From: Chloroflexia bacterium
Lineage (GTDB): Bacteria > Chloroflexota > Chloroflexia > QHBQ01
DNA: 62,420 bases
Direction of reading: 5' to 3'
Assembly (NCBI GenBank): GCA_038229595.1
Contig: JBBROH010000004.1
Span: forward strand, 1-62,420
The translations under genes and the position numbers were made by a program. Positions 3,886 through 62,420 of this stretch are shown piece after piece. Under the pieces are notes generated by a model, which had not been told where the DNA came from, ran no database searches, and saw nothing but the letters and a program-made list of their open reading frames with translations. Each line of letters begins with the position of its first letter. Within the stretch, counting starts at the first letter, position 1.

Positions 3886-5424
3886 ATGATCGTTACTCAG
3901 GTGCAGGTGTTGCGTGGCCCCAACCGTTACGCTACGTGTCCGATGATCGAGTTGGTAGTGGACGCAGAGGCGGCGGGCGATGATAGCTACCGGGCGGTGC
4001 AGGCGTTCGCCGAGCGCATTATGGCCTTGCAGCGCGAAGCTGGCCCGCTGCCAGCTAGCAGCAAGGTAATGAGCCGCCCGTTGGCTGGCACCTACCGCCT
4101 GGCAGTCGCCTACGACAACGAGGCGCGGGCGCGGGCAGCGGTGGAGTTGGCGACGCGGGAGGCGAACGGTGAGTCCCTGGGCGCAAACGAGATCGCCGAA
4201 CTGAAGGCGATCCCCCAACCGACCGAGCCGCCCGATGAGGTGCGGGCGCGGCAGAGTGGCAAGTTCATCGTTGCGGTCACTGGCACGAACGGCAAGACCA
4301 CTACCTCCCGCCTGATCGCCCACCTCTACGCAACGGGGGGCGAGGTGGTTGGCTTCACCAGCACCGAGGGTACTTACATCAACGGCAAGCTGTTTGAGGA
4401 CGGCGACAACGCTGGGCCAAAGAGTGCGCGGGATGTGTTGCTCAACCCGGAAGTGGAGATTGCCGTGTTGGAGACGGCGCGGGGCGGTATCCTACGCGAG
4501 GGTCTGGCCTTCGACCAGGCGGATGTGGCGGTCGTGACCAACGTCGCTGCTGACCACCTGGGCCTGCGGGGGATTAACACGGTGGAGGAGTTGGCCGAGG
4601 TCAAGGGGGTGCTGGTTGATGCGCTGGCCCCTGACGGCGCGGCGGTACTGAATGCGGAGGACGTACTGGTGGCGGCTATGGCCCAACGCACGAAGGCGGA
4701 GACGATCTACTTCGCGCTTGATCGGGCGGCGGTGGCTGACCACCTGAAGCGGGGTGGGCGCGCGGTCTACCGTGCTGACGAGGCGATCATGCTCGGCTGG
4801 GGGCGGCACGAGGAGCGGCTGACCAGTCTGAGCGCAGTGCCAGTGACCCTCGGCGGCGCACTCGGCTTCCAGGTGCAGAACGCACTGGCAGCGGTAGCAG
4901 CGGCCTGGGCGGGCGATCTACCGCTGGACAAGATCGTTAGCGGGCTGGCTACCTTCAAGGGCGACATGGCGATGAGTCATGGCCGCTTCAACTTCTTCGA
5001 CCTGCGCGGCGCAACTGTGATCCTCGACTACGGCCACAACGCAGCGGCAGTGCGCGCCCTCGGTCAGGCGGCGGCCAACCTGCCTGCCACACGGCGCATC
5101 GTGATGGTGGCAACCGCAGGCGACCGCCGCGACGAGGACATTCGGCTGCTGGGCGAAGAAGCGGCGCGCTGGTTCGACAAGGTGATCGCCAAAGATGTGA
5201 ACAACCGACGCGGGCGCAGGCGGGCTGAGGTGTCGGGGCTGATCCGCGAGGGCGCACTACGCATCCACCCGGAGCGCGAGGTGCTGATGTACACCGACCT
5301 TGACCAGGCATATAAGGAGACGCTGGCTGCTCTACAAGCGGGCGAACTGCTGCTGATCTGTGAGGACGACCTTGCCTTCGTCATGCCGCAGATGGATGCA
5401 GCGGGGGCTGTGGCGCGGGCTTAG
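3886..5424 (+). CDS. cyanophycin synthetase-like Mur ligase lacking the ATP-grasp domain
   Basis: CphA-like N-terminus (VLRGPNRY), then VAVTGTNGKTTT, VLETARGGILREGL, ADHLG, DYGHN, AGDRRDED. RBS GGGAG lies before ATG 3886. Confidence 0.8.
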   Translation: MIVTQVQVLRGPNRYATCPMIELVVDAEAAGDDSYRAVQAFAERIMALQREAGPLPASSKVMSRPLAGTYRLAVAYDNEARARAAVELATREANGESLGANEIAELKAIPQPTEPPDEVRARQSGKFIVAVTGTNGKTTTSRLIAHLYATGGEVVGFTSTEGTYINGKLFEDGDNAGPKSARDVLLNPEVEIAVLETARGGILREGLAFDQADVAVVTNVAADHLGLRGINTVEELAEVKGVLVDALAPDGAAVLNAEDVLVAAMAQRTKAETIYFALDRAAVADHLKRGGRAVYRADEAIMLGWGRHEERLTSLSAVPVTLGGALGFQVQNALAAVAAAWAGDLPLDKIVSGLATFKGDMAMSHGRFNFFDLRGATVILDYGHNAAAVRALGQAAANLPATRRIVMVATAGDRRDEDIRLLGEEAARWFDKVIAKDVNNRRGRRRAEVSGLIREGALRIHPEREVLMYTDLDQAYKETLAALQAGELLLICEDDLAFVMPQMDAAGAVARA

Positions 5425-5433
5425 GGCGGCTTG

Positions 5434-6192
5434 CTAGCCTATCTTCACCCCCACCGCCTGTAGGATGGCGACTAGGAGCGGGGCGTAGAGCAGGGCGGGC
5501 AAGAAGTTGGCGACTGGTAGCTGCTTGATCTCCAACAACTTGAGGGCAACCGCCAGCACGGTCAGGCCACCAACCGCCGTCATCTCGTTGACCTGCAAGG
5601 TGGTGAGCAAGCCACTGCCAACTACCCCTGCTAGCAGGCTGATGCCGCCTTGCACGATGAGGATGGTGACGACGGTGAACAGCACCCCGAAGCCGAGGCT
5701 GGCGGCGAAGGCGATGGCCGCGAAGCCGTCGAGGGTAGACTTGAGGGCAAGCAACTGGATGTCGTTGGGGTTGATGCCGTTCTGGATCGAGCCGAGGATG
5801 GTTAGCGGGCCGACGCAGAAGACGAGACTGGTGGTAATAAAGGCTTGCGATATGGTAGCCAGACCGCGCCTGGGCGGTGCATCGGGGTCAGCCTCAACCT
5901 GTTGGCCCAGCCTGCGGGCGGTGGTAGCCTGTAGCCAGTTGCCCAGTTGCTCAAGCCGCTGTTCAAGGCGCAACCACTCGCCGGTTAGTGCGCCGAGCAT
6001 CAACGCACCGAGGGGGATCAGGGCGTTTTTGGTGCTGCTCATCATTTGGATGCTGAACAGGATGGTGGTCAAGCTGAGGCTCTGCAATATGATGCGCTGG
6101 TAGCGTTCTGGCAGCCTGTTGCCTAGCAAGGTGCCGAAGATGCCGCCGAGGAGGACGGTGAGTGCGTTGAGCAGGGTGCCGCCGAGGATCAT
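5434..6192 (-). CDS. DUF554 (YdfK-like) membrane protein
   Basis: GTLLNALTVLLGG, FCVGPLTILGSI, LKSTLDGFAAIAFAAS, VANFLPAL. Confidence 0.9.
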   Translation of the reverse strand: MILGGTLLNALTVLLGGIFGTLLGNRLPERYQRIILQSLSLTTILFSIQMMSSTKNALIPLGALMLGALTGEWLRLEQRLEQLGNWLQATTARRLGQQVEADPDAPPRRGLATISQAFITTSLVFCVGPLTILGSIQNGINPNDIQLLALKSTLDGFAAIAFAASLGFGVLFTVVTILIVQGGISLLAGVVGSGLLTTLQVNEMTAVGGLTVLAVALKLLEIKQLPVANFLPALLYAPLLVAILQAVGVKIG

Positions 6193-6947: not shown

Positions 6948-8042
6948 TCACAACCGCTTGCCGAGCCGCTCCAACGCGCTGGCGGCAACGCTGGCAACGC
7001 TGCGGCCAAAGACGGTGCGCCAGTCGTGCAGCAGGGCGCGTAGGGGATTGGTCGCCTCTGTGCTACCGCTGGCCGCGAGGTACTGCGTGGCATGAACACG
7101 GCTGGCTGGGTCGTCTACTTGCAACGCACTAACCATCACAGCTACTATTGTGGGGCTGCCAGGGAAGTGCGTGAGGGCCACAAGGCTGGCACGGCGCACG
7201 GTCAGGCTCTCGTCGTGAGTGGCTACCTTGAGCAGAGCAGAGAGGGTAGCGGGGTCGGCGATCTGGCCGAGGCTGCTAGCAGCCGCAGCCCGCACCCAGG
7301 CGTGGTCGTCGGCCAGAGCAACCAGGAGCGGCAAACCCGCCTGAGGGTCGGCGATCTGGCCGAGGGCTTCAGCGGCACTCTGGCGCACGCCGCTATCAGG
7401 GTCGCGCAGCAGGGGGCGGAGGTCGCTGGCAGCAGTAGCATCATGCAGCCCAGCGAGGGTGGCAGCGGCAGTGCGCCGCGCAAGTGGGTTGCTGGCGCGC
7501 AAGAGCGGGCGCAGGCTGGCGGCAGTGGTTTGGTCGGCCAGGGCAACGAGGGCGACGCTGGCGGCATAGCGTACTGCCGCGTAGGGATCGCCGATCAGGG
7601 CGAGGAGTGCGGAGCGAAGGCTATTGGCGTGGCTATTGGCTAGGGTGGCAGGGGAGAGGCTGGCGACCAACTCTGTCGCTTGCCAACGTTCTGCGTCACC
7701 TGCTTGCAGGGCGGCTAGCAGTTCGGTCAGCAGCCTCTCCTGCCACTCCCCGGCCTGGAGCAGGCTGGCGACCTGCCAGCGCACAGCCAGGCTAGGGTCA
7801 TCCTTCAGTTCAACAAGGGCAGCGGCTACTGCGGCATCCGTCATGATCACTGCCAGCATTGCCACCGCACTGGCGCGCACCTGCCAGCGGGGGCTATGCA
7901 AGGCGGCCAGCAATGTTCCACGTGCAACATCGTCGCCTGCCAGGTCAACGGTGGTTGGCAGGCTGGCTAGCTCCTGATCGAGGGTGAGGGTGAGGTCATC
8001 ACCTGCCTGCCGCCTGCCAAAGAAGTTGGGGATGATTGGCAT
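6948..8042 (-). CDS. HEAT repeat protein
   Basis: repeated LxDxxxxVRxxAAxALGxI motifs; start codon uncertain. Confidence 0.85.
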   Translation of the reverse strand: MPIIPNFFGRRQAGDDLTLTLDQELASLPTTVDLAGDDVARGTLLAALHSPRWQVRASAVAMLAVIMTDAAVAAALVELKDDPSLAVRWQVASLLQAGEWQERLLTELLAALQAGDAERWQATELVASLSPATLANSHANSLRSALLALIGDPYAAVRYAASVALVALADQTTAASLRPLLRASNPLARRTAAATLAGLHDATAASDLRPLLRDPDSGVRQSAAEALGQIADPQAGLPLLVALADDHAWVRAAAASSLGQIADPATLSALLKVATHDESLTVRRASLVALTHFPGSPTIVAVMVSALQVDDPASRVHATQYLAASGSTEATNPLRALLHDWRTVFGRSVASVAASALERLGKRL

Positions 8043-8786: not shown

Positions 8787-8921
8787 TGTTGCACGTGGAA
8801 CAATGTTTGGCGAACCAACAGTACCTGTGTTCCACGTGCAACATTGCTTGACGAACTAGCGGCCCTATGTTCCACGTGCAACATTGCTTGACGGCAAGAG
8901 GGGAGCGTTCCACGTGGAACA
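8787..8921. other. cluster of four parS (ParB-binding centromere) sites
   Basis: TGTTGCACGTGGAACA 8787-8802, TGTTCCACGTGCAACA 8828-8843 and 8868-8883, CGTTCCACGTGGAACA 8906-8921; all match the parS consensus tGTTnCACGTGnAACa. Confidence 0.88.
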
Positions 8922-8942
8922 CTGCCCTTGTGCTAGCTCCCC

Positions 8943-9755
8943 TCAGCCTACCGTAGTGCCAAAGATCATCAGCGGGCTACTACCGGTGAAGGGATCGCCG
9001 TCGTAGCTGCCCCAACGTTCGCTGATCGTCAGGCCAGCGGCAGTGATCAGCAGTTCTAGTTCGCGGGGGAAGTAGGTGTGGCTGTCGAAGGTGGCAACTG
9101 ACTTGTGGGTGTGACCGTTCTCTAGGTATTGCTCGTAGACGAAGGTGATGCGTTCGCGCTGGCTATCGGGCGTGTACTGGTGGGTAATATAGCGCAGCAG
9201 GCGGCTAACCCCCACCGCAGGGTTGCTCAGGTCGAGGTCGAGCCGCATGATGGTGGGCGGCTTGCTCTCGGCCAACTGCGCGAGGTTGGGATGAAACACA
9301 TCCACCACGAAGTGACCGCCCGGCGCGAGGCAGGCTGCGGCGTTGCGAAAGGTGGAGATTTGGTCTCTGCTGTCGTGGATATGGGCCATCGAGTTGTAGG
9401 GAACGTAGATCAGGTCGTATGAGCCGCCCGCATCGTCAGTGCAGAAGCTGGTCATGTCGCCAACTAGCAGGCGCACACGCTGCTGCACCTCCACCCGCTC
9501 GCCCGCTAGCTTCCCCTGCGCCTTAGCGATCATGGGGGCTGAAGCGTCTAGACCAGTGAACTGATACTCGTTGCCGCTGAAGTGGCGAGCAAGATGTAGG
9601 AGGATCCGCCCAGTGCCAACCGCCAGTTCTAGCACTCGCTTTGCCTGGTACTGCTCAACAACCCGCTGCCAGAAGCCAAGATCGTCCCGCGACTCCTTGT
9701 TCTCCAACTCGTAGAGCCAAGTGTCGCTATACATTACCGCTGCGTCGCTCTCCAT
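8943..9755 (-). CDS. class I SAM-dependent methyltransferase
   Basis: VLELAVGTGR motif I, GLDASAPM, GDM, LAPGGHFVVD. Confidence 0.9.
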   Translation of the reverse strand: MESDAAVMYSDTWLYELENKESRDDLGFWQRVVEQYQAKRVLELAVGTGRILLHLARHFSGNEYQFTGLDASAPMIAKAQGKLAGERVEVQQRVRLLVGDMTSFCTDDAGGSYDLIYVPYNSMAHIHDSRDQISTFRNAAACLAPGGHFVVDVFHPNLAQLAESKPPTIMRLDLDLSNPAVGVSRLLRYITHQYTPDSQRERITFVYEQYLENGHTHKSVATFDSHTYFPRELELLITAAGLTISERWGSYDGDPFTGSSPLMIFGTTVG

Positions 9756-54819: not shown

Positions 54820-57057
54820 TTACGGGGTCTGCAACTTGTTGGCCTGGCTCTCAGCGTCGCGGAGGGCATCCGTCACGCTGCGAGTACCCTTGATCGCTAC
54901 AGTCATCGCGTTAGAGATGATGTCGCGCACCTGCTGGTAGCTGCCCAACTTCGGCTCGCTGCGGGTGGCGAACGGTAGCACGTTGAGGTTGCTCTTGGCC
55001 TTCGCGTCCTTGTCGTAGACCGACTTCAGCGGATCGAGCGTGGTTGCGCTCTTGCGTACTGGGAAGTAGCCGCTGACCGAGGCCCAGCGAGCGGACTGCT
55101 GCCCTTCGAGGAACCACTTGACGAACTGCCACGAAGCGGCCTGCTTGGCCTCTGTGGTCTTGTACATGATGATATTGCCGCCGTAGAGGGTGGTGCCAGG
55201 CTGCACACCAGCGGCCTGCGGCATCACAGCAGCGAACCAGTTGAAGTCGTAGGCCGGGTCAACCTTGCCGTCTGCACCCTTCGGGTAGTAGCTCTTGATG
55301 AAGCTGTAGGCCGTGCTGCTGCGGAACAGGAAGGCGACCTTCTTGTTGGCGAAGTCGATCTCGTCCTGGAACGAGTTGACCTCAACCTGGTTGAAGTAAC
55401 CGCCGCGCACGCCGTCTACCAGCAGTTGCAAGGCCTTCTGTGCGCCCGCGTTGTTGAAGTTGTACTTCTTGTTGTCCGCCGTCGTGACCGTGCCACCGAA
55501 GGCGTAGATCATCGCTACGTACATCGAAGTCTCGTTCTCGAACTCAAAGCCGCTGTATTCCTCACCGAGAGCCGCAACCTTCTTGGAGATGCTCACGAAC
55601 TCCTCCCAGGTCTTGGGTGGGCCGCTGGCACCAACCTGCTTGAGCAGGTCTTCGTTGTACCACATGGTCAGAGCCGACTTGGTGAAGGGCAGGCTGTAGA
55701 ACTTGTTGTCGTACTGGGCGTACTTGTTGGTCTCGATGAAGTTCGGGTAAATGTCCGTGAGGTCGGCCTGGCTGAAGCCGTCCGCGCCATTTAGGTAGCT
55801 GTCGAAGGGTACAACGGCATCGGCATCGTAGAGCGAGGGAATCCAGTTCTCGTAACCGACGGTCAGTTCGGGCAGTGCGTTGGCGACCGCAGCGGCCTGC
55901 ACAGCGGTGAGCAACTGCGAGTAGTTGCCCTTGTACTCTGGGATGACCTGGATGTTGGGGTGCGACTTGTTAAAGTCCACTGCCATTGCGGTCAGTTCAG
56001 CCGCGTTGGTGCGGGTCTGGGTGTGCCAGAAGTGGACGATGGTGGCGTTGGGGGCGGCGGTGAAGGTCGGGGCTGGGGTCGCAGTAGCAGCGGGTGGACC
56101 AGCCGGGGTAGGAGTGCTAGCCTTCGGCGTGGCGGTCGGCGGCACGCCCTGACCCTTGTAACGCCAGTCGTAGTAGTGCTGGCCGATATTGCCAACCTGC
56201 ACCTTGAAGCCTTCGGGGGCAGAGGGAACGTAGGTGAGGACGCGCCGCTCGAAAGCCTGGATCAGCACGTCGGTGTTGGCCTGACCCGCGATCCTGACCT
56301 TCGCCCAGTACGGCTCGCTGATCGGCAGGCCGCTGGCGTAGTTCCAGGGGTCGCTCAGTTGCACGTCCTGCTTGGTCGCGCCATTCTCTACGATAGGACC
56401 CTTGCTGTTGAGGAACGTCCAGAAGGCCGCCGGGATGTTGTGGCGGGTGGTCTCGTCGAAGTGGACGTACTTGCCCAGGGCATCGCTGCTCTTGGTCGCG
56501 TCAATACCGGTGCGGCCATCCTTGCGGATCGTGGTGATTGCGTTGTCGCCGGTGTTGTCGCTGACCTGGCCGAGCAGGTTCTTGAAGCTGGCGTAGGTCG
56601 GGGCAGCCTTGTCGTCGCTGTCCGAAGCCAACGGGATGTCGGCGGCCTGCTTGTCCATGAACTTGTCGTTGCCAACCTGCATCCGACCGGAGATCAGTTC
56701 CTGGGTCAGCAACCCGTTGGTGACATAGAACTTGCTGTTCTTGTCGCCCTTCGGGTCGTTGAGTTCCATGCGGCTCTTGTCGAAGTACTGCACCAGCCGC
56801 TTGCCGCTGCCGTCCTTGGCCTCGGCGTAATCTTCCTGAAGTGCGCCGCTGCTTGGGGTCGGCCCCCAGTACCAACTGCGCTTAACCGCGCCGCTGGCAA
56901 CCAGGCTGTCGGTGCGGTTCCAGGTGGTCTGGAACGCGGGGTCGGCAAAGCCGTTGGCGGTGACGGTCTGCGCCTGGGCAGGCCGCAGCTGGATCAGGCC
57001 CGCGAAGACCATGACCAGCATGGCGGCGGCCATAAAGATAGAACCAAACTTCTTCAC
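54820..57057 (-). CDS. CUT1/UgpB-like ABC substrate-binding protein fused to an N-terminal cell-surface domain
   Basis: signal peptide without a lipobox; same N-domain as 30185-32017; SBP region IVHFWH..DFNKSHPNI..YSLPF..PPKTWEE..SGYFPVRKS; GTG start after AAGGAGG. Confidence 0.88.
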   Translation of the reverse strand: MKKFGSIFMAAAMLVMVFAGLIQLRPAQAQTVTANGFADPAFQTTWNRTDSLVASGAVKRSWYWGPTPSSGALQEDYAEAKDGSGKRLVQYFDKSRMELNDPKGDKNSKFYVTNGLLTQELISGRMQVGNDKFMDKQAADIPLASDSDDKAAPTYASFKNLLGQVSDNTGDNAITTIRKDGRTGIDATKSSDALGKYVHFDETTRHNIPAAFWTFLNSKGPIVENGATKQDVQLSDPWNYASGLPISEPYWAKVRIAGQANTDVLIQAFERRVLTYVPSAPEGFKVQVGNIGQHYYDWRYKGQGVPPTATPKASTPTPAGPPAATATPAPTFTAAPNATIVHFWHTQTRTNAAELTAMAVDFNKSHPNIQVIPEYKGNYSQLLTAVQAAAVANALPELTVGYENWIPSLYDADAVVPFDSYLNGADGFSQADLTDIYPNFIETNKYAQYDNKFYSLPFTKSALTMWYNEDLLKQVGASGPPKTWEEFVSISKKVAALGEEYSGFEFENETSMYVAMIYAFGGTVTTADNKKYNFNNAGAQKALQLLVDGVRGGYFNQVEVNSFQDEIDFANKKVAFLFRSSTAYSFIKSYYPKGADGKVDPAYDFNWFAAVMPQAAGVQPGTTLYGGNIIMYKTTEAKQAASWQFVKWFLEGQQSARWASVSGYFPVRKSATTLDPLKSVYDKDAKAKSNLNVLPFATRSEPKLGSYQQVRDIISNAMTVAIKGTRSVTDALRDAESQANKLQTP

Positions 57058-58151
57058 ACAATCCTCCTTGTGAGACTGCACACTGGCCCGGCATACTTCG
57101 CCGGACTGACGAGATATAGGGTGGAACCGTTCGTTGCCCTGGTGGGCGCGTATGGGGTTGGTACGGCAGAGGCTGCGGTGATTGCCCAGCCGAGCGGGGC
57201 ATGGTGGTTGGCTAGTATAAGATAGGGGCTTGATAACTTGACACCCGTCTTGGCGATACCCTCAACAAACTGCCGTTGGGCAAAGAAGTAGATGACGATG
57301 ATCGGCAGGATGGTGAAGGTAGCCGCAGCCATCAGCAGGTGGAACTCGTTCTGCTCGGAGTTGAGGAAGTTGGATAGCCCCACCTGGATTGTCCGCATAC
57401 TATCCTGGCTGGTGACGATCAGCGGCCAGAGCAGGCTGTTCCAACTACCAATAAAGCTGAACAGCCCAGCGGTGATCAGGGCGGGCTTGGAGAGCGGCAC
57501 TGCGAACTGCCAGATGAAGCGCAGACGGCTGCACCCATCCAATGCTGCCGCTTCGTAAATATCCTCTGGTAGGGCGCGGAAGAACTGGCGCAGCAGAAAG
57601 ATGTTGAAAGGGCTGGCGATCCAGGGGATGACCAGCGCGGCGTAGGTGTCGATCCACTGAAGGTTGCGGACGATCACGAAGTTGGGGATGTAGGCAGCCT
57701 CATGAGGGATCATCATCGTTGCCAGCACCAGGCCGAAGATCAGCCCAGACCCTCGGAAGTCGAGCTTGGCGAAGGCGTAGGCCGCCAACACTGAGGTGAT
57801 CAGCACCCCGACGGTGCAGAGGCTTGCCACCAGGATGGAGTTGAAGAAGTAGCGACCGAAGTCCGCCGACTGCCAGGCATCCTTGTAATTGCTCCACTGC
57901 GGGTTGGTCGGCACAAACATCCGCAGGGTGGCCCCCAGGTCAGCGTTCTTGGGGAAGTTGGTCGCCTGGTCGCTAGTCTTGAGCGAGGTAGCGACCATCC
58001 AGACGAAGGGCAGGAGGGCGAAGATCGAGCCGATGATCAGCGCGAGGTGGGTGAGCAGGCCGCTCACCTGGAAGCGGCGTTTGCTGCCCGTGCTGCGGGC
58101 CTCTAGTGCATCGCTGCTGACTGGTACTCTGGTGGAGGCTTCTACGGCCAC
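57054..58151 (-). CDS. carbohydrate ABC transporter permease (MalG/UgpE type), C-terminally extended
   Basis: FFNS, AAYAFAK, FLLRQFF, EAAALDG, WNSLLWP, QRQFVEGI. Confidence 0.9.
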   Translation of the reverse strand: MAVEASTRVPVSSDALEARSTGSKRRFQVSGLLTHLALIIGSIFALLPFVWMVATSLKTSDQATNFPKNADLGATLRMFVPTNPQWSNYKDAWQSADFGRYFFNSILVASLCTVGVLITSVLAAYAFAKLDFRGSGLIFGLVLATMMIPHEAAYIPNFVIVRNLQWIDTYAALVIPWIASPFNIFLLRQFFRALPEDIYEAAALDGCSRLRFIWQFAVPLSKPALITAGLFSFIGSWNSLLWPLIVTSQDSMRTIQVGLSNFLNSEQNEFHLLMAAATFTILPIIVIYFFAQRQFVEGIAKTGVKLSSPYLILANHHAPLGWAITAASAVPTPYAPTRATNGSTLYLVSPAKYAGPVCSLTRRIV

Positions 58152-58166: not shown

Positions 58167-59261
58167 CTAGTAGTTGACGCGGCTGGCCGCGAGGCGAGTC
58201 TGGAAGATCGAGAGGACGACTAGGATGAAGAACAGGATGATCGCCGTAGTCGAGGCGTAGCTGAGGCCCAACTGGGTGTAGCGGAAGGCTGCGGTGTAGA
58301 AGAACAGGGTCATCACGTTGGTCGAGTTATCAGGCCCACCCAGGCGGTCAATCGAGGTGGTGAACACGGTGGTGAAGGCCTGGAACGCGCCGATGGTGCT
58401 GACGATAGCGAGGAAGAAGGTGGTGGGCGAGATCAGCGGCCAAGTGATGTTCTTGAACAGTGTCCAGCCCTGCGCGCCATCTACGCGGGCCGCATCGTAG
58501 AGTTCCTTCGGCACGTTTTGCAGCCCTGCAATAAAGACGACCGTGTTGAAGCCTACCACGCTCCAGATCGCCAGGAGGATGATCGTAGACAGAGCAAGGC
58601 TAGGGCCGCCGAGGAAGCTAGTCAGACCGCCGATCAGCTTCGATCCCAAGTCTTCAGGATTGGCACTGTTGATCACTGGCTGGATGTTGAAAGCGAGTTG
58701 GAAGATACCGCGACTTTCGCCCAGGAAGTCCACCGGCTTGCCGCCAACCCCGACGATCAGCGAGTTGACCAGGCCGCCCGGCCCGTTCTGGTTCGGTGAA
58801 CGGAATAGCCACCGCCAGATCATGCCCGCCACGAGCAACGAGGTTACGTAGGGCAGGAAGAAGATGGTGCGGTAGATGCCAATGCCCCGAATGGGCCGAT
58901 TGAGCAGCAGAGCGAGACCGAGCGCAGTCGCCAGCCCCAACACTACGCTACCGAGGGCGTACCAGATCGTGTTGCCCAGCACCTTCCAGAATATATCGTC
59001 GTTGAGGATGCGGCCATAGTTGTTGAAGCCGGTAAACCGCTCTGGGGCGGGCAGCAAGCCTTTGAAGATCGGGGCGCGGTAGAGGCTGAGGACAAAGGCA
59101 TAGATGATCGGCAGGAAGTGGAAGATGCCGAGAACCAGTATGGCAGGGAGGATCAGCACGTAACCCTCAAGGTTGAGGCGGAACCGCCGTCGCCGTTGCG
59201 AGCGCGCCAGTTGAGCCAACATCTGTTCTTCGCTCTGCAAACCCGCAGTGCCTGTTGTCAT
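58167..59261 (-). CDS. carbohydrate ABC transporter permease (MalF/UgpA type)
   Basis: RTIFFLPYVTS, AGLQNVP, YDAARVDGA, ITWPLISPT, GGPDNST. Confidence 0.92.
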   Translation of the reverse strand: MTTGTAGLQSEEQMLAQLARSQRRRRFRLNLEGYVLILPAILVLGIFHFLPIIYAFVLSLYRAPIFKGLLPAPERFTGFNNYGRILNDDIFWKVLGNTIWYALGSVVLGLATALGLALLLNRPIRGIGIYRTIFFLPYVTSLLVAGMIWRWLFRSPNQNGPGGLVNSLIVGVGGKPVDFLGESRGIFQLAFNIQPVINSANPEDLGSKLIGGLTSFLGGPSLALSTIILLAIWSVVGFNTVVFIAGLQNVPKELYDAARVDGAQGWTLFKNITWPLISPTTFFLAIVSTIGAFQAFTTVFTTSIDRLGGPDNSTNVMTLFFYTAAFRYTQLGLSYASTTAIILFFILVVLSIFQTRLAASRVNY

Positions 59262-59309
59262 CTAACAGCGGCTCCCCCTTGCGTCGCCAAAACTGATTGA
59301 CGCGGCTGT

Positions 59310-59341
59310 ATTTTACCGAACAAGTGTTAACAAGATGTTAA
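59310..59341 (-). promoter_or_regulatory. -10 box with an upstream TTAACA direct repeat (Pho-box-like)
   Basis: minus strand TTAACA-N5-TTAACA-9bp-TAAAAT. Confidence 0.5.
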
Positions 59342-59388
59342 GAAAAGCCAGGGGCTGCACAAATTGCACCAGCCTTGCGGCCCCAGGG

Positions 59389-60000
59389 TCAAAGATGCAG
59401 CAGGCTGAGGAGCAGGTAGCTGCCTAGCATGGCAAGCAGGAAGCTGCTAGCCTGGAGCAGATCGCGCTGGCGGTCGAGTACCCAGTCGTTAAAGTCGATC
59501 AGGCTGGCCTTGCGGAAGGTGATGATGCCACCCAGCATGGCGGGTAGCCCGCGCACCAGCCCATAGAGCGCACCTAGCAGCAGCCCCACTTTGAGGCTGG
59601 CGGCCAGCAACTCCCAGCCTAGCAGTAGATAGAAACCCGCAAAGGGGATGAAGGTAAACACACCTGCACCCAGGGCGAGACCGTAGAAGAAGGTGCCGAC
59701 GAGCGGGTAGTTGACCCCCCAGGAGTTAGGCACTTGCCAGTTGGATTGTGGCGCAGGCAGGCGCAGCACGCCCACCTCGTGCAGGGCGTAGAGCAGGGCA
59801 GCGACCGCCAGCAATGCCATCGGTATAGCCTCTCTGCCAAAGAACAGCAGGTGCAGTGGCTTGCCGAGCAGGGCTAGCAGCAACCCTACCAGTGCGCCAC
59901 CGAGCGTAGATGCGACTACGTATACAACTACTCTGACGAGCCAGAGCCTTACATCCTTTGCCTGCTGACCCAGCGGCACGATCACGTAGATCATGTTCAC
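59389..60000 (-). CDS. MauF-like membrane protein
   Basis: 5-6 TM helices; PQSNWQVP..W..FYGLALGAGVFT motif; operon context. Confidence 0.6.
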   Translation of the reverse strand: MNMIYVIVPLGQQAKDVRLWLVRVVVYVVASTLGGALVGLLLALLGKPLHLLFFGREAIPMALLAVAALLYALHEVGVLRLPAPQSNWQVPNSWGVNYPLVGTFFYGLALGAGVFTFIPFAGFYLLLGWELLAASLKVGLLLGALYGLVRGLPAMLGGIITFRKASLIDFNDWVLDRQRDLLQASSFLLAMLGSYLLLSLLHL

Positions 60001-60003
60001 CCC

Positions 60004-60186
60004 TCAGGCAGAGGAGGTTTTGGCGATGCCAAGCAGCACCGCCAGTGTAGCCGCCAGCGCGAGAGCCGCCCCTGCCCGCAGATCGACGTTGCTCCCCTGC
60101 CACAAGGCAAGGCCCGCCCCGGTCAGGAGACCGGCGGCAGGCCAGATTAGGGAGCTAAAGCGTCTACTTGCGCTAAGGTTAGCCAT
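60004..60186 (-). CDS. small 2-TM protein
   Basis: fills the gap in a tightly packed operon; two hydrophobic segments. Confidence 0.55.
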   Translation of the reverse strand: MANLSASRRFSSLIWPAAGLLTGAGLALWQGSNVDLRAGAALALAATLAVLLGIAKTSSA

Positions 60187-60197
60187 CAGTCAGCTAA

Positions 60198-60650
60198 CTA
60201 GTCGTTGCTGCGCTGGCGACCCAGCCCAGGAGCTACTACCGGCGACTTGCTGGTGCGGAACTCGCGGCAACCACACTGATAGTTGGACGCACCGCAGAAG
60301 CAGTCGGTGCAGACGAAGTAGCCCGGTACCACACCCCGCCCACCCGTGCAGTACGAAGTCCAGGTGCCGGAGGGATAGTAGTTGCGGTTTAGGCGACACT
60401 CCTCCATCGTGCCATGTCCGCTGTCCTGGTAGCAGTTCGCGCCCCGACAGTTGGTGCAGTACGGCCCCGGTGGTGAGCAGGAGCAGGTGCTGTTGGTGTA
60501 AGCCTCGGCCACCTGGGTGAACTTGCCAGTAGCAACCCCGACCAGCACGGCAAACACTGCGGTGCCTGCTTGCTTGAGGAACGAGCGGCGGTCAACGGCC
60601 CTGGCGATGCTCTGGGCCAACCGCTGCGTAGTTGTCAGTTCTTCATCCAT
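60198..60650 (-). CDS. Tat-exported cysteine-rich protein (distantly MauA-like)
   Basis: DRRSFLK twin-arginine signal, AEA cleavage site, 12 Cys and a single Trp in the mature part; RBS AGGAG. Confidence 0.85.
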   Translation of the reverse strand: MDEELTTTQRLAQSIARAVDRRSFLKQAGTAVFAVLVGVATGKFTQVAEAYTNSTCSCSPPGPYCTNCRGANCYQDSGHGTMEECRLNRNYYPSGTWTSYCTGGRGVVPGYFVCTDCFCGASNYQCGCREFRTSKSPVVAPGLGRQRSND

Positions 60651-60665
60651 TGTGTTACTCCTATA

Positions 60666-61286
60666 CTAAACTGCGATGAAACGAAAGAACCGGGTGGGTA
60701 AGCGGGCGGCCAGCGGAGCGGCAGTGCTGCTCCCCGCCTCGGCCTCGCGCAGGTAGGTTTCCAGGTTTTGCCTGGTGTTTGCCAGCCCCTTGACCAGCAC
60801 CTTGCCGTTGGGGTTGAGCAGGAAAACGAACGGGGTGACGCGCACCTGGTAGCGTTCCATCAGGCTGCCGTCGTCGCTGCTGACGGTCGGCAGGGCCGAC
60901 TCCATCTCTGCGACGTAGCGCACGCTCTCCTCATGGGTGGTGCGGTTGTTGATCCAGAGGGCGTGGACGCGATCCCCATGCTCGGTCACAAACTGCTGCA
61001 CGTCGGGCAGGAGGCGGCGGCAAGGCTGGCAAGTGGTCGAGCCGAAGACGAGCAGCAGATACCGCTTGCCGTCGAGCAGCGAGCGCATCTGCAAGTTTTC
61101 GCCCTGCTGGTTGAGCGCGCCAAAGTCGGGAGCGAGGGTGTTGGATTTGAGGCCATCACCCGCCACTCCCTGTGCGGTGTTGAGGTACTGCTGCCCGATC
61201 TGGCGGTAGAGCAGCACCACGAGCAAGCCCAGGGCCAGGACTATGGCCCAGAGGACGATATAACTGACCAGCCAGATGCCATCCAT
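60666..61286 (-). CDS. mauD: MauD-like membrane-anchored thioredoxin-fold protein
   Basis: SYIVLW..LYRQIG N-terminus, APDF, CQPC, YQVRVTPF, KGLAN. Confidence 0.8.
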   Translation of the reverse strand: MDGIWLVSYIVLWAIVLALGLLVVLLYRQIGQQYLNTAQGVAGDGLKSNTLAPDFGALNQQGENLQMRSLLDGKRYLLLVFGSTTCQPCRRLLPDVQQFVTEHGDRVHALWINNRTTHEESVRYVAEMESALPTVSSDDGSLMERYQVRVTPFVFLLNPNGKVLVKGLANTRQNLETYLREAEAGSSTAAPLAARLPTRFFRFIAV

Positions 61287-61317
61287 TGGCGTTAAACTGC
61301 CTCTCTTGTACTTCATC

Positions 61318-61896
61318 TTATACTGCCTGCAAGGTCTGGCGGATGTAGCCAAGCACACGACCGCCGAAGACGACCCCCGCGACCGTGATCCCTGCCAGGA
61401 GCAGCACTGGTAGACCGTCGAGCGCGGGGGGGTAGACCCCCTGCCGCCCTGCCACCACCAGGTAGTCGAGCGCAAGCCAGGCCGAGCCAGTGAAGGTCAG
61501 CAGCAGCGCGGCGGTCAACAGCAGCAGGTTACGCAGCAGCGCACCCCAGGTCAGCGTCCCCGCCGAAAAGCTACCAAAGCAGTGACAGTTCTCCGTCTTG
61601 CCAAGCAGCAGCTTGCGGGCCAGCACTACGCTAAAGAGTAGAAACATGGCCGTAGCAGCCAGCCCCGCTATGTTGGTCAGTAGCCCCAGCAGCAGCAGCC
61701 CACCGATAGCTAGCTCAACGAAGGGCAGTAGCCGTGCTGCCAGGCGCGCCAGTGGCAAGGGCAGAAAGCTGACCTCGGCCAGCAGCAGCCCTGGATTGTT
61801 CTCGCGCAGCTTGCCCACCCCAGCAACGAGCAGCACCCCCGCCAGCAATAGGCGAGCAAACAGCACTAGATAGGGTGAATTGACGACCTCTGCCAC
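61318..61896 (-). CDS. mauE: MauE/DoxX-family redox membrane protein
   Basis: ARLLLAGVLLVAGVGKL, LPFVELAIG, CHCFG, LLRNLLL. Confidence 0.85.
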   Translation of the reverse strand: MAEVVNSPYLVLFARLLLAGVLLVAGVGKLRENNPGLLLAEVSFLPLPLARLAARLLPFVELAIGGLLLLGLLTNIAGLAATAMFLLFSVVLARKLLLGKTENCHCFGSFSAGTLTWGALLRNLLLLTAALLLTFTGSAWLALDYLVVAGRQGVYPPALDGLPVLLLAGITVAGVVFGGRVLGYIRQTLQAV

Positions 61897-61961
61897 CGCT
61901 TAGACCTTTATGCAACCGAACGATAGTCTCAAATGCCAGCGAACCTGCTGGCTCTGGCTGA

Positions 61962-61990
61962 ATGTTAGCACAAACTGGGGAGAGAGTCAA
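61962..61990 (-). promoter_or_regulatory. promoter of the mau-like operon
   Basis: TTGACT-17bp-TAACAT with an extended TG on the minus strand. Confidence 0.5.
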
Positions 61991-62227
61991 GGGGCCACCC
62001 AATGTGGTTCAACTACTAGCTGCGCGCAACCACAGCATCTAGCAGTGTGCTAACCTGGGCCAGTAACTCGCGGTGATGTTAGGGGTTGATCCACCATAGC
62101 AGGCGGCTTAGCGGCTGCGTCCAGCAGCACAGTCCCTCTCGCGCTGATCGTGGGCTAATTGTAGCACCGCCGTACTGGATCGTCAGTGTGGTTGCCGCCC
62201 TTTCTCTGCTCTGCTATAATGGAGACC

Positions 62228-62420
62228 ATGCAGGCTACTCCCTTCCTCAAGTGGGCTGGTGGCAAGGGGCAGTTGCTCCGCCACCTGCTGCCCCTCATCC
62301 CCGCACGCTACAGCCGCTACCTGGAGCCATTTATTGGCGGCGGTGCGCTTTACTTTGCCACGCAGCCACGGGTTGCCCTCATTGCCGACGCAAACCGCGA
62401 GTTGGTCACCACTTATGAGG
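62228..62420 (+). CDS. Dam-family (D12) DNA adenine methyltransferase, 5' part only (runs off the window)
   Basis: my translation MQATPFLKWAGGKGQLL...YLEPFIGGGALYF...IADANRELV; absent from the ORF track; TGCTATAAT just upstream. Confidence 0.9.
   Translation, partial: MQATPFLKWAGGKGQLLRHLLPLIPARYSRYLEPFIGGGALYFATQPRVALIADANRELVTTYE

Follow-up and report, generated by a model that had tools for sequence, protein, structure and literature searches.

The window analysed here, a stretch of 62,420 nucleotides from a Chloroflexia bacterium (GTDB lineage Bacteria; Chloroflexota; Chloroflexia; QHBQ01; contig JBBROH010000004.1 of assembly GCA_038229595.1), carries on its minus strand, between positions 61896 and 59389, five open reading frames (ORFs) that resemble part of the mau gene cluster for methylamine dehydrogenase (MADH) and enclose a gene for a small Cys-rich protein with a twin-arginine translocation (Tat) signal, hereafter the client. 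In the ORF listing the five frames are packed with intergenic gaps of about 1-15 nt, which bears out the compact five-gene operon of the original prediction, a note made from the sequence alone; the promoter of its own that the note gave the operon is likewise found, as a sigma-70-like site that matches the consensus only. The features, in the order of transcription, are:

61962-61990, minus strand: promoter-like site TTGACT-17-TAACAT, 5' of the first gene (consensus match only)

61318-61896, minus strand: MauE-family membrane protein (Pfam PF07291), 192 aa, with the motif NCHCFG

60666-61316, minus strand: MauD-like thioredoxin-fold protein, anchored in the membrane and carrying the motif CQPC; its frame is open as far as 61475

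60198-60650, minus strand: Tat-signal precursor of 150 aa, the client, in the position of MauA; its mature part of about 101 aa is beta-rich, with 12 Cys and one Trp

60004-60186, minus strand: 60-aa membrane protein with two hydrophobic stretches and the C-terminus ..AKTSSA, a companion directly before the MauF-like gene

59389-59994, minus strand: MauF-like polytopic membrane protein without Cys; the listed ORF, of 203 aa, runs from GTG 60000

Promoter-like sites number three in the region 59100-62420, as compared to 0.5 expected from shuffles. The MauD-like frame probably starts at ATG 61316, with 61286 as an alternative, and for the fifth gene a start at ATG 59994 is indicated by the alignment of its family (A4). 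No terminator-like site was found in the 127 nt separating the fifth gene from the ABC permease gene that follows it; the 3' end of the transcript is thereby left open.

The client precursor carries a recognisable Tat signal (TIGR01409, 18.8 bits with a cut-off of 16.7), and its Cys residues (positions 56, 58, 65, 68, 73, 85, 101, 114, 117, 119, 126 and 128) and sole Trp (position 97) are exactly those given in the original prediction. At least 12 Cys within any 101-aa stretch are encountered in 40 of the genome's 7008 stop-to-stop frames of at least 150 aa. The client belongs to no Pfam family, and its mature domain has no match to the MauA models of Pfam or NCBIfam at E<=1. Structure prediction yields a beta-rich core of about 85 residues (predicted local distance difference test, pLDDT, 83), with W97 and D116 placed on neighbouring strands, 96-101 and 110-119, of one hairpin. 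Searched against the PDB by sequence, the protein and its profile (A1) gave chance rows only, RNase K6 at E 0.12 and interleukin-37 at E 0.48, and these were discarded.

A word-indexed search recovered only 5 relatives. When 1.84 billion representatives were searched with a profile, 118 clusters reached E<=0.001, 33 of them <=1e-10, and scanning species genomes for a pattern brought up 41 loci, each labelled as a Chloroflexia or Chloroflexota metagenome-assembled genome (MAG). Within the window's order, 30 of the 31 genomes have the family (27 of 28 when three unpublished genomes are left aside); it is present in the window's own genome as a single copy, and in 7 of 301 genomes sampled across the phylum. 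The gene order mauE-mauD-client-mauF, with one to three client copies, recurs at L004, L009, L011, L012 and L016 (our labels for loci) and in other families of the phylum (L046-L054). It extends to the actinomycete Nonomuraea gerenzanensis, where MauE-like, MauD-like, Tat-signal Cys-rich and MauF-like ORFs are consecutive in the same order and the Cys-rich ORF aligns with the family profile through both leader and core (hhalign probability 97.2%, E 3.1e-11, 109 columns). Beside this set, Nonomuraea gerenzanensis holds a second, divergent one (L055:7591-8838, minus strand), comprising a MauE-like protein with CGC, a MauF-like protein and a small upstream ORF, with a putative lipoprotein ORF at 7051-7557.

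Among the 59 family ORFs in the 41 loci, 51 have exactly 12 Cys and 5 have 13-16, the remaining 3 being fragments. In an alignment of 129 sequences the invariant columns are R21, C58, C65, W97, C114, D116, C126 and C128, such that, Cys aside, nothing in the mature domain is invariant but W97, the one invariant Trp column, and D116; a spacing of 19 from this Trp to this Asp is peculiar to the window's subclade. Having Trp at this position alone, as in the window protein, is shared among the locus ORFs only by L004, its 96%-identical twin. The nearly invariant C96 and C115 are missing from the window protein, in which C56 and C101 occur instead, whereas P0015, 51% identical to it, has all four, and 14 Cys in total; judging from these sequences, the pattern fits the loss of one disulfide pair (C96/C115) and the gain of another (C56/C101). 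In one client-Kelch pair the Cys-rich gene (L028:9877-10322) is divided between two frames that overlap, with 4 and 8 Cys, respectively; a frameshift in this copy or a mistake in the assembly is the probable cause.

The first gene product scores 82.9 bits on PF07291 (cut-off 27), and its translation contains NCHCFG, that is, CXC followed by F-G. In a 2026 bioRxiv preprint on MauE (10.64898/2026.03.05.709764), this motif is given as the active site, and MauE from two phyla is reported to substitute for DsbB in E. coli. The MauE of the window is presumed to be a quinone-linked, DsbB-like disulfide generator. It is the only MauE over the Pfam cut-off in the genome, where TatC was also found and DsbB was not. 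The genome additionally encodes VKOR, on contig C38, as a separate and general disulfide route; together, a single MauE located in the operon and a VKOR outside it argue for a dedicated oxidative-folding system operating alongside the general one.

The second gene product matches Thioredoxin_8, AhpC-TSA and Redoxin in Pfam, and its top NCBIfam match is MauD (TIGR02661) at 60.3 bits, under the equivalog cut-off of 188.6, followed by StoA and ResA at about 45 bits. A tblastn search against plasmids placed annotated mauD genes among the top matches (H1, H2 and H4 of 67 records). With the thioredoxin fold and CQPC present but the equivalog cut-off not reached, 'MauD-like' is the right label.

For the 203-aa protein no Pfam or NCBIfam match above noise was obtained; NCBIfam, in which Paracoccus versutus MauF itself matches nothing, has no MauF model, and this blank is thus uninformative. 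Comparison of the alignment of 20 of its relatives (A4) with P. versutus MauF gave an hhalign probability of 97.6% (E 3.6e-12, 186 columns, MauF residues 79-265), so the fifth gene, which had originally been called MauF-like by eye, is MauF-like by profile as well. It is single-copy in 29 of the 31 genomes of the order. The 203-aa protein has no counterpart of the N-terminal 78 or so residues of MauF, and by its size and position the 60-aa protein is possibly this missing part; hhalign found nothing between the 60-aa family (A9) and the MauF N-terminus (probability 1.5%). In 16 of 17 MauF rows (12 distinct sequences), the start of the MauF-like gene is immediately preceded by the end of a small ORF that has two hydrophobic stretches, with an offset of 10 in the 11 closest rows and a C-terminus that is mostly ..KTSSA; this small ORF is kept even at loci devoid of a client gene. 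Judged by this conservation, the 60-aa gene is a companion of MauF and not an immunity gene, and the role in immunity or anchoring originally suggested for its product is not upheld. A three-gene unit of MauE, a 72-aa membrane ORF (..SKTSSA) and the MauF-like gene occurs in three genomes that belong to a different family of the order (L063:3008-4648, L064:3963-5534 and L065:4157-5700), without MauD or a client gene, those being at other loci.

The arrangement invites comparison with the MADH cluster mauFBEDACJGMN, which on the P. versutus plasmid pTAV3 (L045) reads mauF-mauB-mauE-mauD-mauA-amicyanin-mauJ-mauG-mauM-napH. Shared with it are the MauE, MauD and MauF homologues and the order of E, D and small subunit. 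The client further resembles MauA in having a Tat leader that is extended at the N-terminus, ahead of the RR motif, and 12 Cys in about 100 residues; MauA has six disulfides. In contrast to the MADH cluster, the window's operon contains no mauB, mauG, mauJ, mauMN or amicyanin gene and its MauF appears split into genes of 60 and 203 aa, while the client, unlike MauA, has a single Trp, is shorter, has nothing after the CGC strand, and is dissimilar in its mature sequence.

The original prediction had proposed looking for mauB and mauG elsewhere in the genome. In the assembly (4.25 Mb in 318 contigs, 87% complete), neither MauB (PF06433) nor MauG (PF03150) gave a match at E<=1, and across the 31 genomes of the order PF06433 has 1 marginal match. 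A genome-wide search with PF02975 (MauA) did not report the window's Cys-rich ORF; its one sub-threshold match, of 20.5 bits on contig C81, was rejected as a mauA, being out of frame within a 499-aa ORF and containing an internal TGA. The client falls outside PF02975, and for scale a true MauA scores 390.5 bits on TIGR02659. The tryptophan tryptophylquinone (TTQ) cofactor of MADH is made from two residues, Trp57 and Trp108 in MADH numbering. Both Trp columns are invariant in our MauA alignment (A5, W114 and W165), and the window protein has W97 alone, which makes TTQ impossible. Given the single Trp, the lack of a PF02975 match and a genome in which neither mauB nor mauG was found, the view that the client is not part of a TTQ amine dehydrogenase stands.

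Where the client does resemble MauA is in its leader. The family alignment A3 matches a 34-sequence MauA alignment with an hhalign probability of 95.6% (E 1.2e-8), over 37 leader columns only. A hidden Markov model (HMM) of the family leader, built without the window protein, scores MauA leaders at 23.7-27.0 bits (best six), whereas among 33,239 genome frames, other Tat substrates included, no other scores above 14.1 bits. When the whole precursor was used in a language-model search, 18 of its 30 neighbours were PF02975 clusters (up to 0.96) and the other 12 were unnamed Chloroflexota or Actinomycetota clusters; the recognition value of 1933 is below the mark of 2300, which makes this weak evidence. 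In a comparison of folds, TTQ light chains were the top-ranked match, again a weak one. The real likeness to MauA consists of the leader, the gene context and, weakly, the fold, and we lean, if only just, towards a remote common ancestry of the client with MauA.

In relatives, the client is frequently encoded next to a large Kelch protein, which follows the client gene, or an array of up to five tandem client genes, in 24 of the 41 loci. The gene next after 58 distinct client genes encodes a Kelch protein in 29 cases, another client in 15 and a MauF-like protein in 8 (open-ended frames counted). The N-terminal 450 or so residues of the Kelch proteins form a Kelch propeller; Kelch repeats are present in all of the 25 aligned proteins (A7, from Chloroflexia MAGs, comprising L034:6762-9146, L037:1326-4352 and 23 other loci), SLH domains in 23 and C-terminal cupredoxin domains in 7. 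The propeller has no His or Cys that is invariant among the 25 proteins, and therefore looks like a scaffold and not a metal enzyme, as is likewise the case for MauB. Amicyanin is the electron acceptor of MADH, and in the L034 cupredoxin, the one tested for this likeness, amicyanins score about 50 bits, second only to a nitrite-reductase domain, with plastocyanins at <=34 bits. For 26 client-Kelch pairs the distance matrices correlate with r 0.68, a value reached by none of 2000 permutations; this fits co-inheritance and co-duplication, with a contribution from shared species history. Many of the Kelch-linked loci contain MauD but not MauE or MauF, which are found together elsewhere (three such genomes). 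A complex prediction for the L033 Kelch domain (residues 55-425) and its adjacent client (residues 62-154) gave scores of 0.01 and 0.17 against a mark of 0.32, with no verdict either way. A tree of the client family annotated with gene context has 20 of its 55 inner branches open and does not separate MauF-linked from Kelch-linked copies.

Several further features of these loci and of the window's genome were recorded. At L033:6443-9108 the Kelch gene seems to shift frame after a Pro/Thr-rich linker, with the SLH part in the other frame (8866-9108). Small ORFs lie upstream of MauD-client-Kelch at L035:1711-2283 and three other loci, one of them with an antibiotic biosynthesis monooxygenase (ABM) domain; the ABM-like ORFs (4 loci) are the only oxidising enzyme recurrent near the system. 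Genes for UvdE, VWA, FHA/zinc-ribbon, HEAT, DUF6232, aminotransferase and M14 peptidase-SLH proteins were considered as parts of the system and set aside as lineage synteny. In the window's genome, contig C2 encodes two adjacent proteins of about 580 aa with Copper-bind and Cupredoxin_1 matches and SLH domains (L066:2516-4291 and 4391-6121, minus strand), which are cell-surface blue-copper proteins unlinked to the operon.

Taken together, we consider it probable that the operon is a self-contained export and oxidative-folding cassette of the Mau type together with its own client, which cannot be a TTQ enzyme. The original prediction that the Mau kit serves a different client agrees with the MauE, MauD-like and MauF homologues that accompany the Cys-rich Tat protein. 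The 150-aa precursor would be exported via Tat and cleaved after AEA (residues 47-49). The membrane-anchored MauD-like protein, through its CQPC motif, would then introduce or shuffle six disulfides in the client, and MauE (CHC-FG) would reoxidise it, with quinone receiving the electrons. MauF, split into parts of 60 aa and 203 aa, would assist in this maturation; we know of no account of how MauF assists, even for MADH. The product is expected to be a disulfide-locked, beta-rich domain of about 85 residues with W97 and D116 on neighbouring strands, and the client is most likely a folded extracytoplasmic subunit or partner of cell-surface proteins.

A number of results weigh against this reading or against the links to MauA and to the Kelch proteins that accompany it. 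Foldseek found nothing for the client model. Outside the leader, the mature client and mature MauA align with an hhalign probability of 0.1%, mature-domain hmmsearch in both directions reaches at most about 4 bits, and a language-model search with residues 54-135 alone gave no usable neighbour. The likeness of the W..SYC...CTDCFC...CGC pattern to MauA, to which the original prediction had pointed, is at chance level, its ungapped score of 29 being reached by 691 of 1000 composition-preserving shuffles. The gapless alignment of W97/C101/D116/C117/C126/C128 with MauA W114/C118/D133/C134/C143/C145 was accordingly rejected, because shuffles reach the score and the spacing varies within the family. 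Even for the leader, the reverse comparison is poor: a MauA-leader HMM gives the window protein 10.8 bits, rank 6 among the genome frames. A long branch (2.43 changes per column) leads to the window protein and L004; neither has the family's second aromatic Trp or C96/C115, so the Kelch-linked copies may function differently from these two. There is no Kelch gene in the window's operon, and no client gene adjoins the genome's best Kelch(-SLH) protein, which is encoded on contig C165 and scores 292.8 bits as compared to 509-747 bits for the client-linked ones. The Kelch proteins and MauB show no homology (hhalign probability 0.7%). Finally, MauA is reported in only 10.2% of MauE-bearing species, and MauE is argued to be a generalist oxidase, in the MauE preprint (10.64898/2026.03.05.709764); if so, a MauE beside a Cys-rich gene is less special than it appears. 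The window's MauE shares the CXC and F-G of that generalist enzyme and, as in about 90% of species there, occurs without MauA, but differs in being embedded with MauD, a split MauF and a specific client in a genome that also encodes VKOR.

The alternative that survives best, although we regard it as unlikely, is that the client is the small, cofactor-bearing subunit of a new cell-surface oxidoreductase: W97 would be converted into a single-Trp or Cys-Trp quinone cofactor with D116 as the catalytic base, and the subunit would dock on the Kelch protein in place of MauB and pass electrons to the amicyanin-like cupredoxin, the window's copy being stand-alone or acting in trans. This would account for W97 and D116 being the only invariant non-Cys mature residues, on neighbouring strands of the model, and for TTQ light chains being the top fold match. 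It also agrees with the Kelch domain having no invariant His or Cys, as expected of a scaffold, and with the way in which the relatives mirror the parts of MADH (MauD, a small Cys-rich subunit, a propeller and, in 7 of 25, a cupredoxin, with MauE and MauF elsewhere), except that the propeller is non-homologous and MauG is missing. The cupredoxin is, however, present in just those 7 of 25 Kelch proteins, and in the window's genome no propeller is linked to the client. For an enzyme, it is unusual to have one to five small-subunit genes in tandem for each propeller gene, and an even 12 Cys, making six disulfides, leaves none spare for a Cys-Trp link. Nor is MauG, a radical-SAM (QhpD-type), a flavoprotein or a subtilisin-type maturase conserved in the neighbourhoods of the relatives. 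Quinohemoprotein amine dehydrogenase contains a small cross-linked gamma subunit with cysteine tryptophylquinone (CTQ), held by a beta-propeller subunit. The relatives' small, heavily cross-linked Trp-bearing subunit, encoded beside a propeller and an electron-transfer module, would follow the same architecture; in contrast, none of its maturases was seen near the relatives, and the cross-links of the client are presumably extracytoplasmic disulfides. The broader proposal of a new class of Chloroflexota and Actinomycetota surface oxidoreductases, MADH-like in build, with a single-Trp or other new cofactor made without MauG and with the window's cassette as their maturation core, is more doubtful still.

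We find it improbable that the client is a secreted mini-protein akin to a bacteriocin or to a ribosomally synthesised and post-translationally modified peptide (RiPP), with the Mau genes as its tailoring and export kit and the tandem copies as variant precursors. Such an idea has a precedent in Streptomyces, where the decRiPPter study (PMC7794033) lists candidate RiPP clusters, untested, that combine mauE/mauD with Cys-rich precursors. As in the window, Mau accessory genes are present there without the rest of mau beside a small Cys-rich ORF, and the window's family too occurs in an actinomycete in the same gene order; the evidence here, unlike the proposal made there (PMC7794033), points to a folded domain exported via Tat. 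As its leader the protein has a Tat signal whose AxA site is ordinary, and its core, of about 85 residues, is modelled with confidence as a domain. The near-universal presence of the family in the order (30/31 genomes), with the MauF-like gene single-copy in 29/31, is not what accessory antimicrobial loci show. The relatives' neighbourhoods contain no conserved gene for a protease, a transporter or immunity, the 60-aa gene tracks MauF and not the client, and in relatives the client is tightly paired with SLH-anchored Kelch proteins. The antimicrobial role entertained in the original prediction is accordingly unlikely, and a folded subunit associated with the envelope is a likelier reading than a RiPP.

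We give little credence to the client binding or storing a metal, for example copper, through thiolates, with the MauD-like protein acting as a reductant of the TlpA/ResA type that keeps its Cys reduced. The 12 Cys with their CxC, CxxC and CC(D)C motifs, the StoA and ResA reductases that follow MauD among the NCBIfam matches at about 45 bits and the SLH-anchored cupredoxin proteins encoded in the genome would suit such a role. However, the thioredoxin is paired with MauE, reported to complement DsbB as an oxidase (10.64898/2026.03.05.709764), the Cys count is even, with C96/C115 lost together and C56/C101 gained together in the manner of disulfide pairs, and the model is a compact beta fold and not a thiolate cluster protein. 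The notion of a decaying mau cluster with a truncated MauA, in line with the missing counterpart of the MauA C-terminal third (which bears the second TTQ Trp) and the missing mauB and mauG, is scarcely credible given an intact frame, 118 clusters with invariant residues, presence in 30/31 genomes of the order and in another phylum, and the essential absence of MauB across the order (1 marginal match in 31 genomes).

Around the operon, two further ORFs deserve mention. Downstream of the two membrane-protein ORFs that follow the operon lies a 753-aa ORF (54820-57081, minus strand) that, by reading its sequence, resembles an ABC-type solute-binding protein with an N-terminal extension of about 330 residues and a Pro/Thr/Ala-rich linker. 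Divergent from the operon, an open-ended ORF (62186-62419, plus strand) containing ..WAGGK...EPFIGGGALYF runs off the window; it looks like the start of a putative Dam-type DNA adenine methyltransferase. Among public sequencing runs, 12 DNA rows contain 0.08-0.27 of the query words, and no RNA run is listed.

In the literature searched, the client family with its invariant Trp/Asp pair, its presence throughout the order, the split-MauF cassette and the Kelch-SLH-cupredoxin pairing appear undescribed. Known precedents are the association of mauE/mauD with Cys-rich precursors (PMC7794033) and the common occurrence of MauE without MauA (10.64898/2026.03.05.709764).

To our knowledge, MauD, MauE and MauF have for decades been known only as helpers of the MADH small subunit, with the function of MauF unknown. 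Here, a cassette of MauE, MauD, a Tat client and a small membrane gene plus a MauF-like gene recurs without the dehydrogenase in nearly all genomes of the order and in an actinomycete, and would represent a second, independent class of client for the Mau machinery, useful for establishing the roles of MauF and of the MauA-type leader. The client itself belongs to an unannotated family of putative six-disulfide mini-proteins with an invariant Trp/Asp pair, and its pairing with Kelch-SLH(-cupredoxin) proteins in relatives offers a testable case for a new surface redox complex. Should the product be a plain structural protein, the operon would still be a clean example of dedicated oxidative folding.

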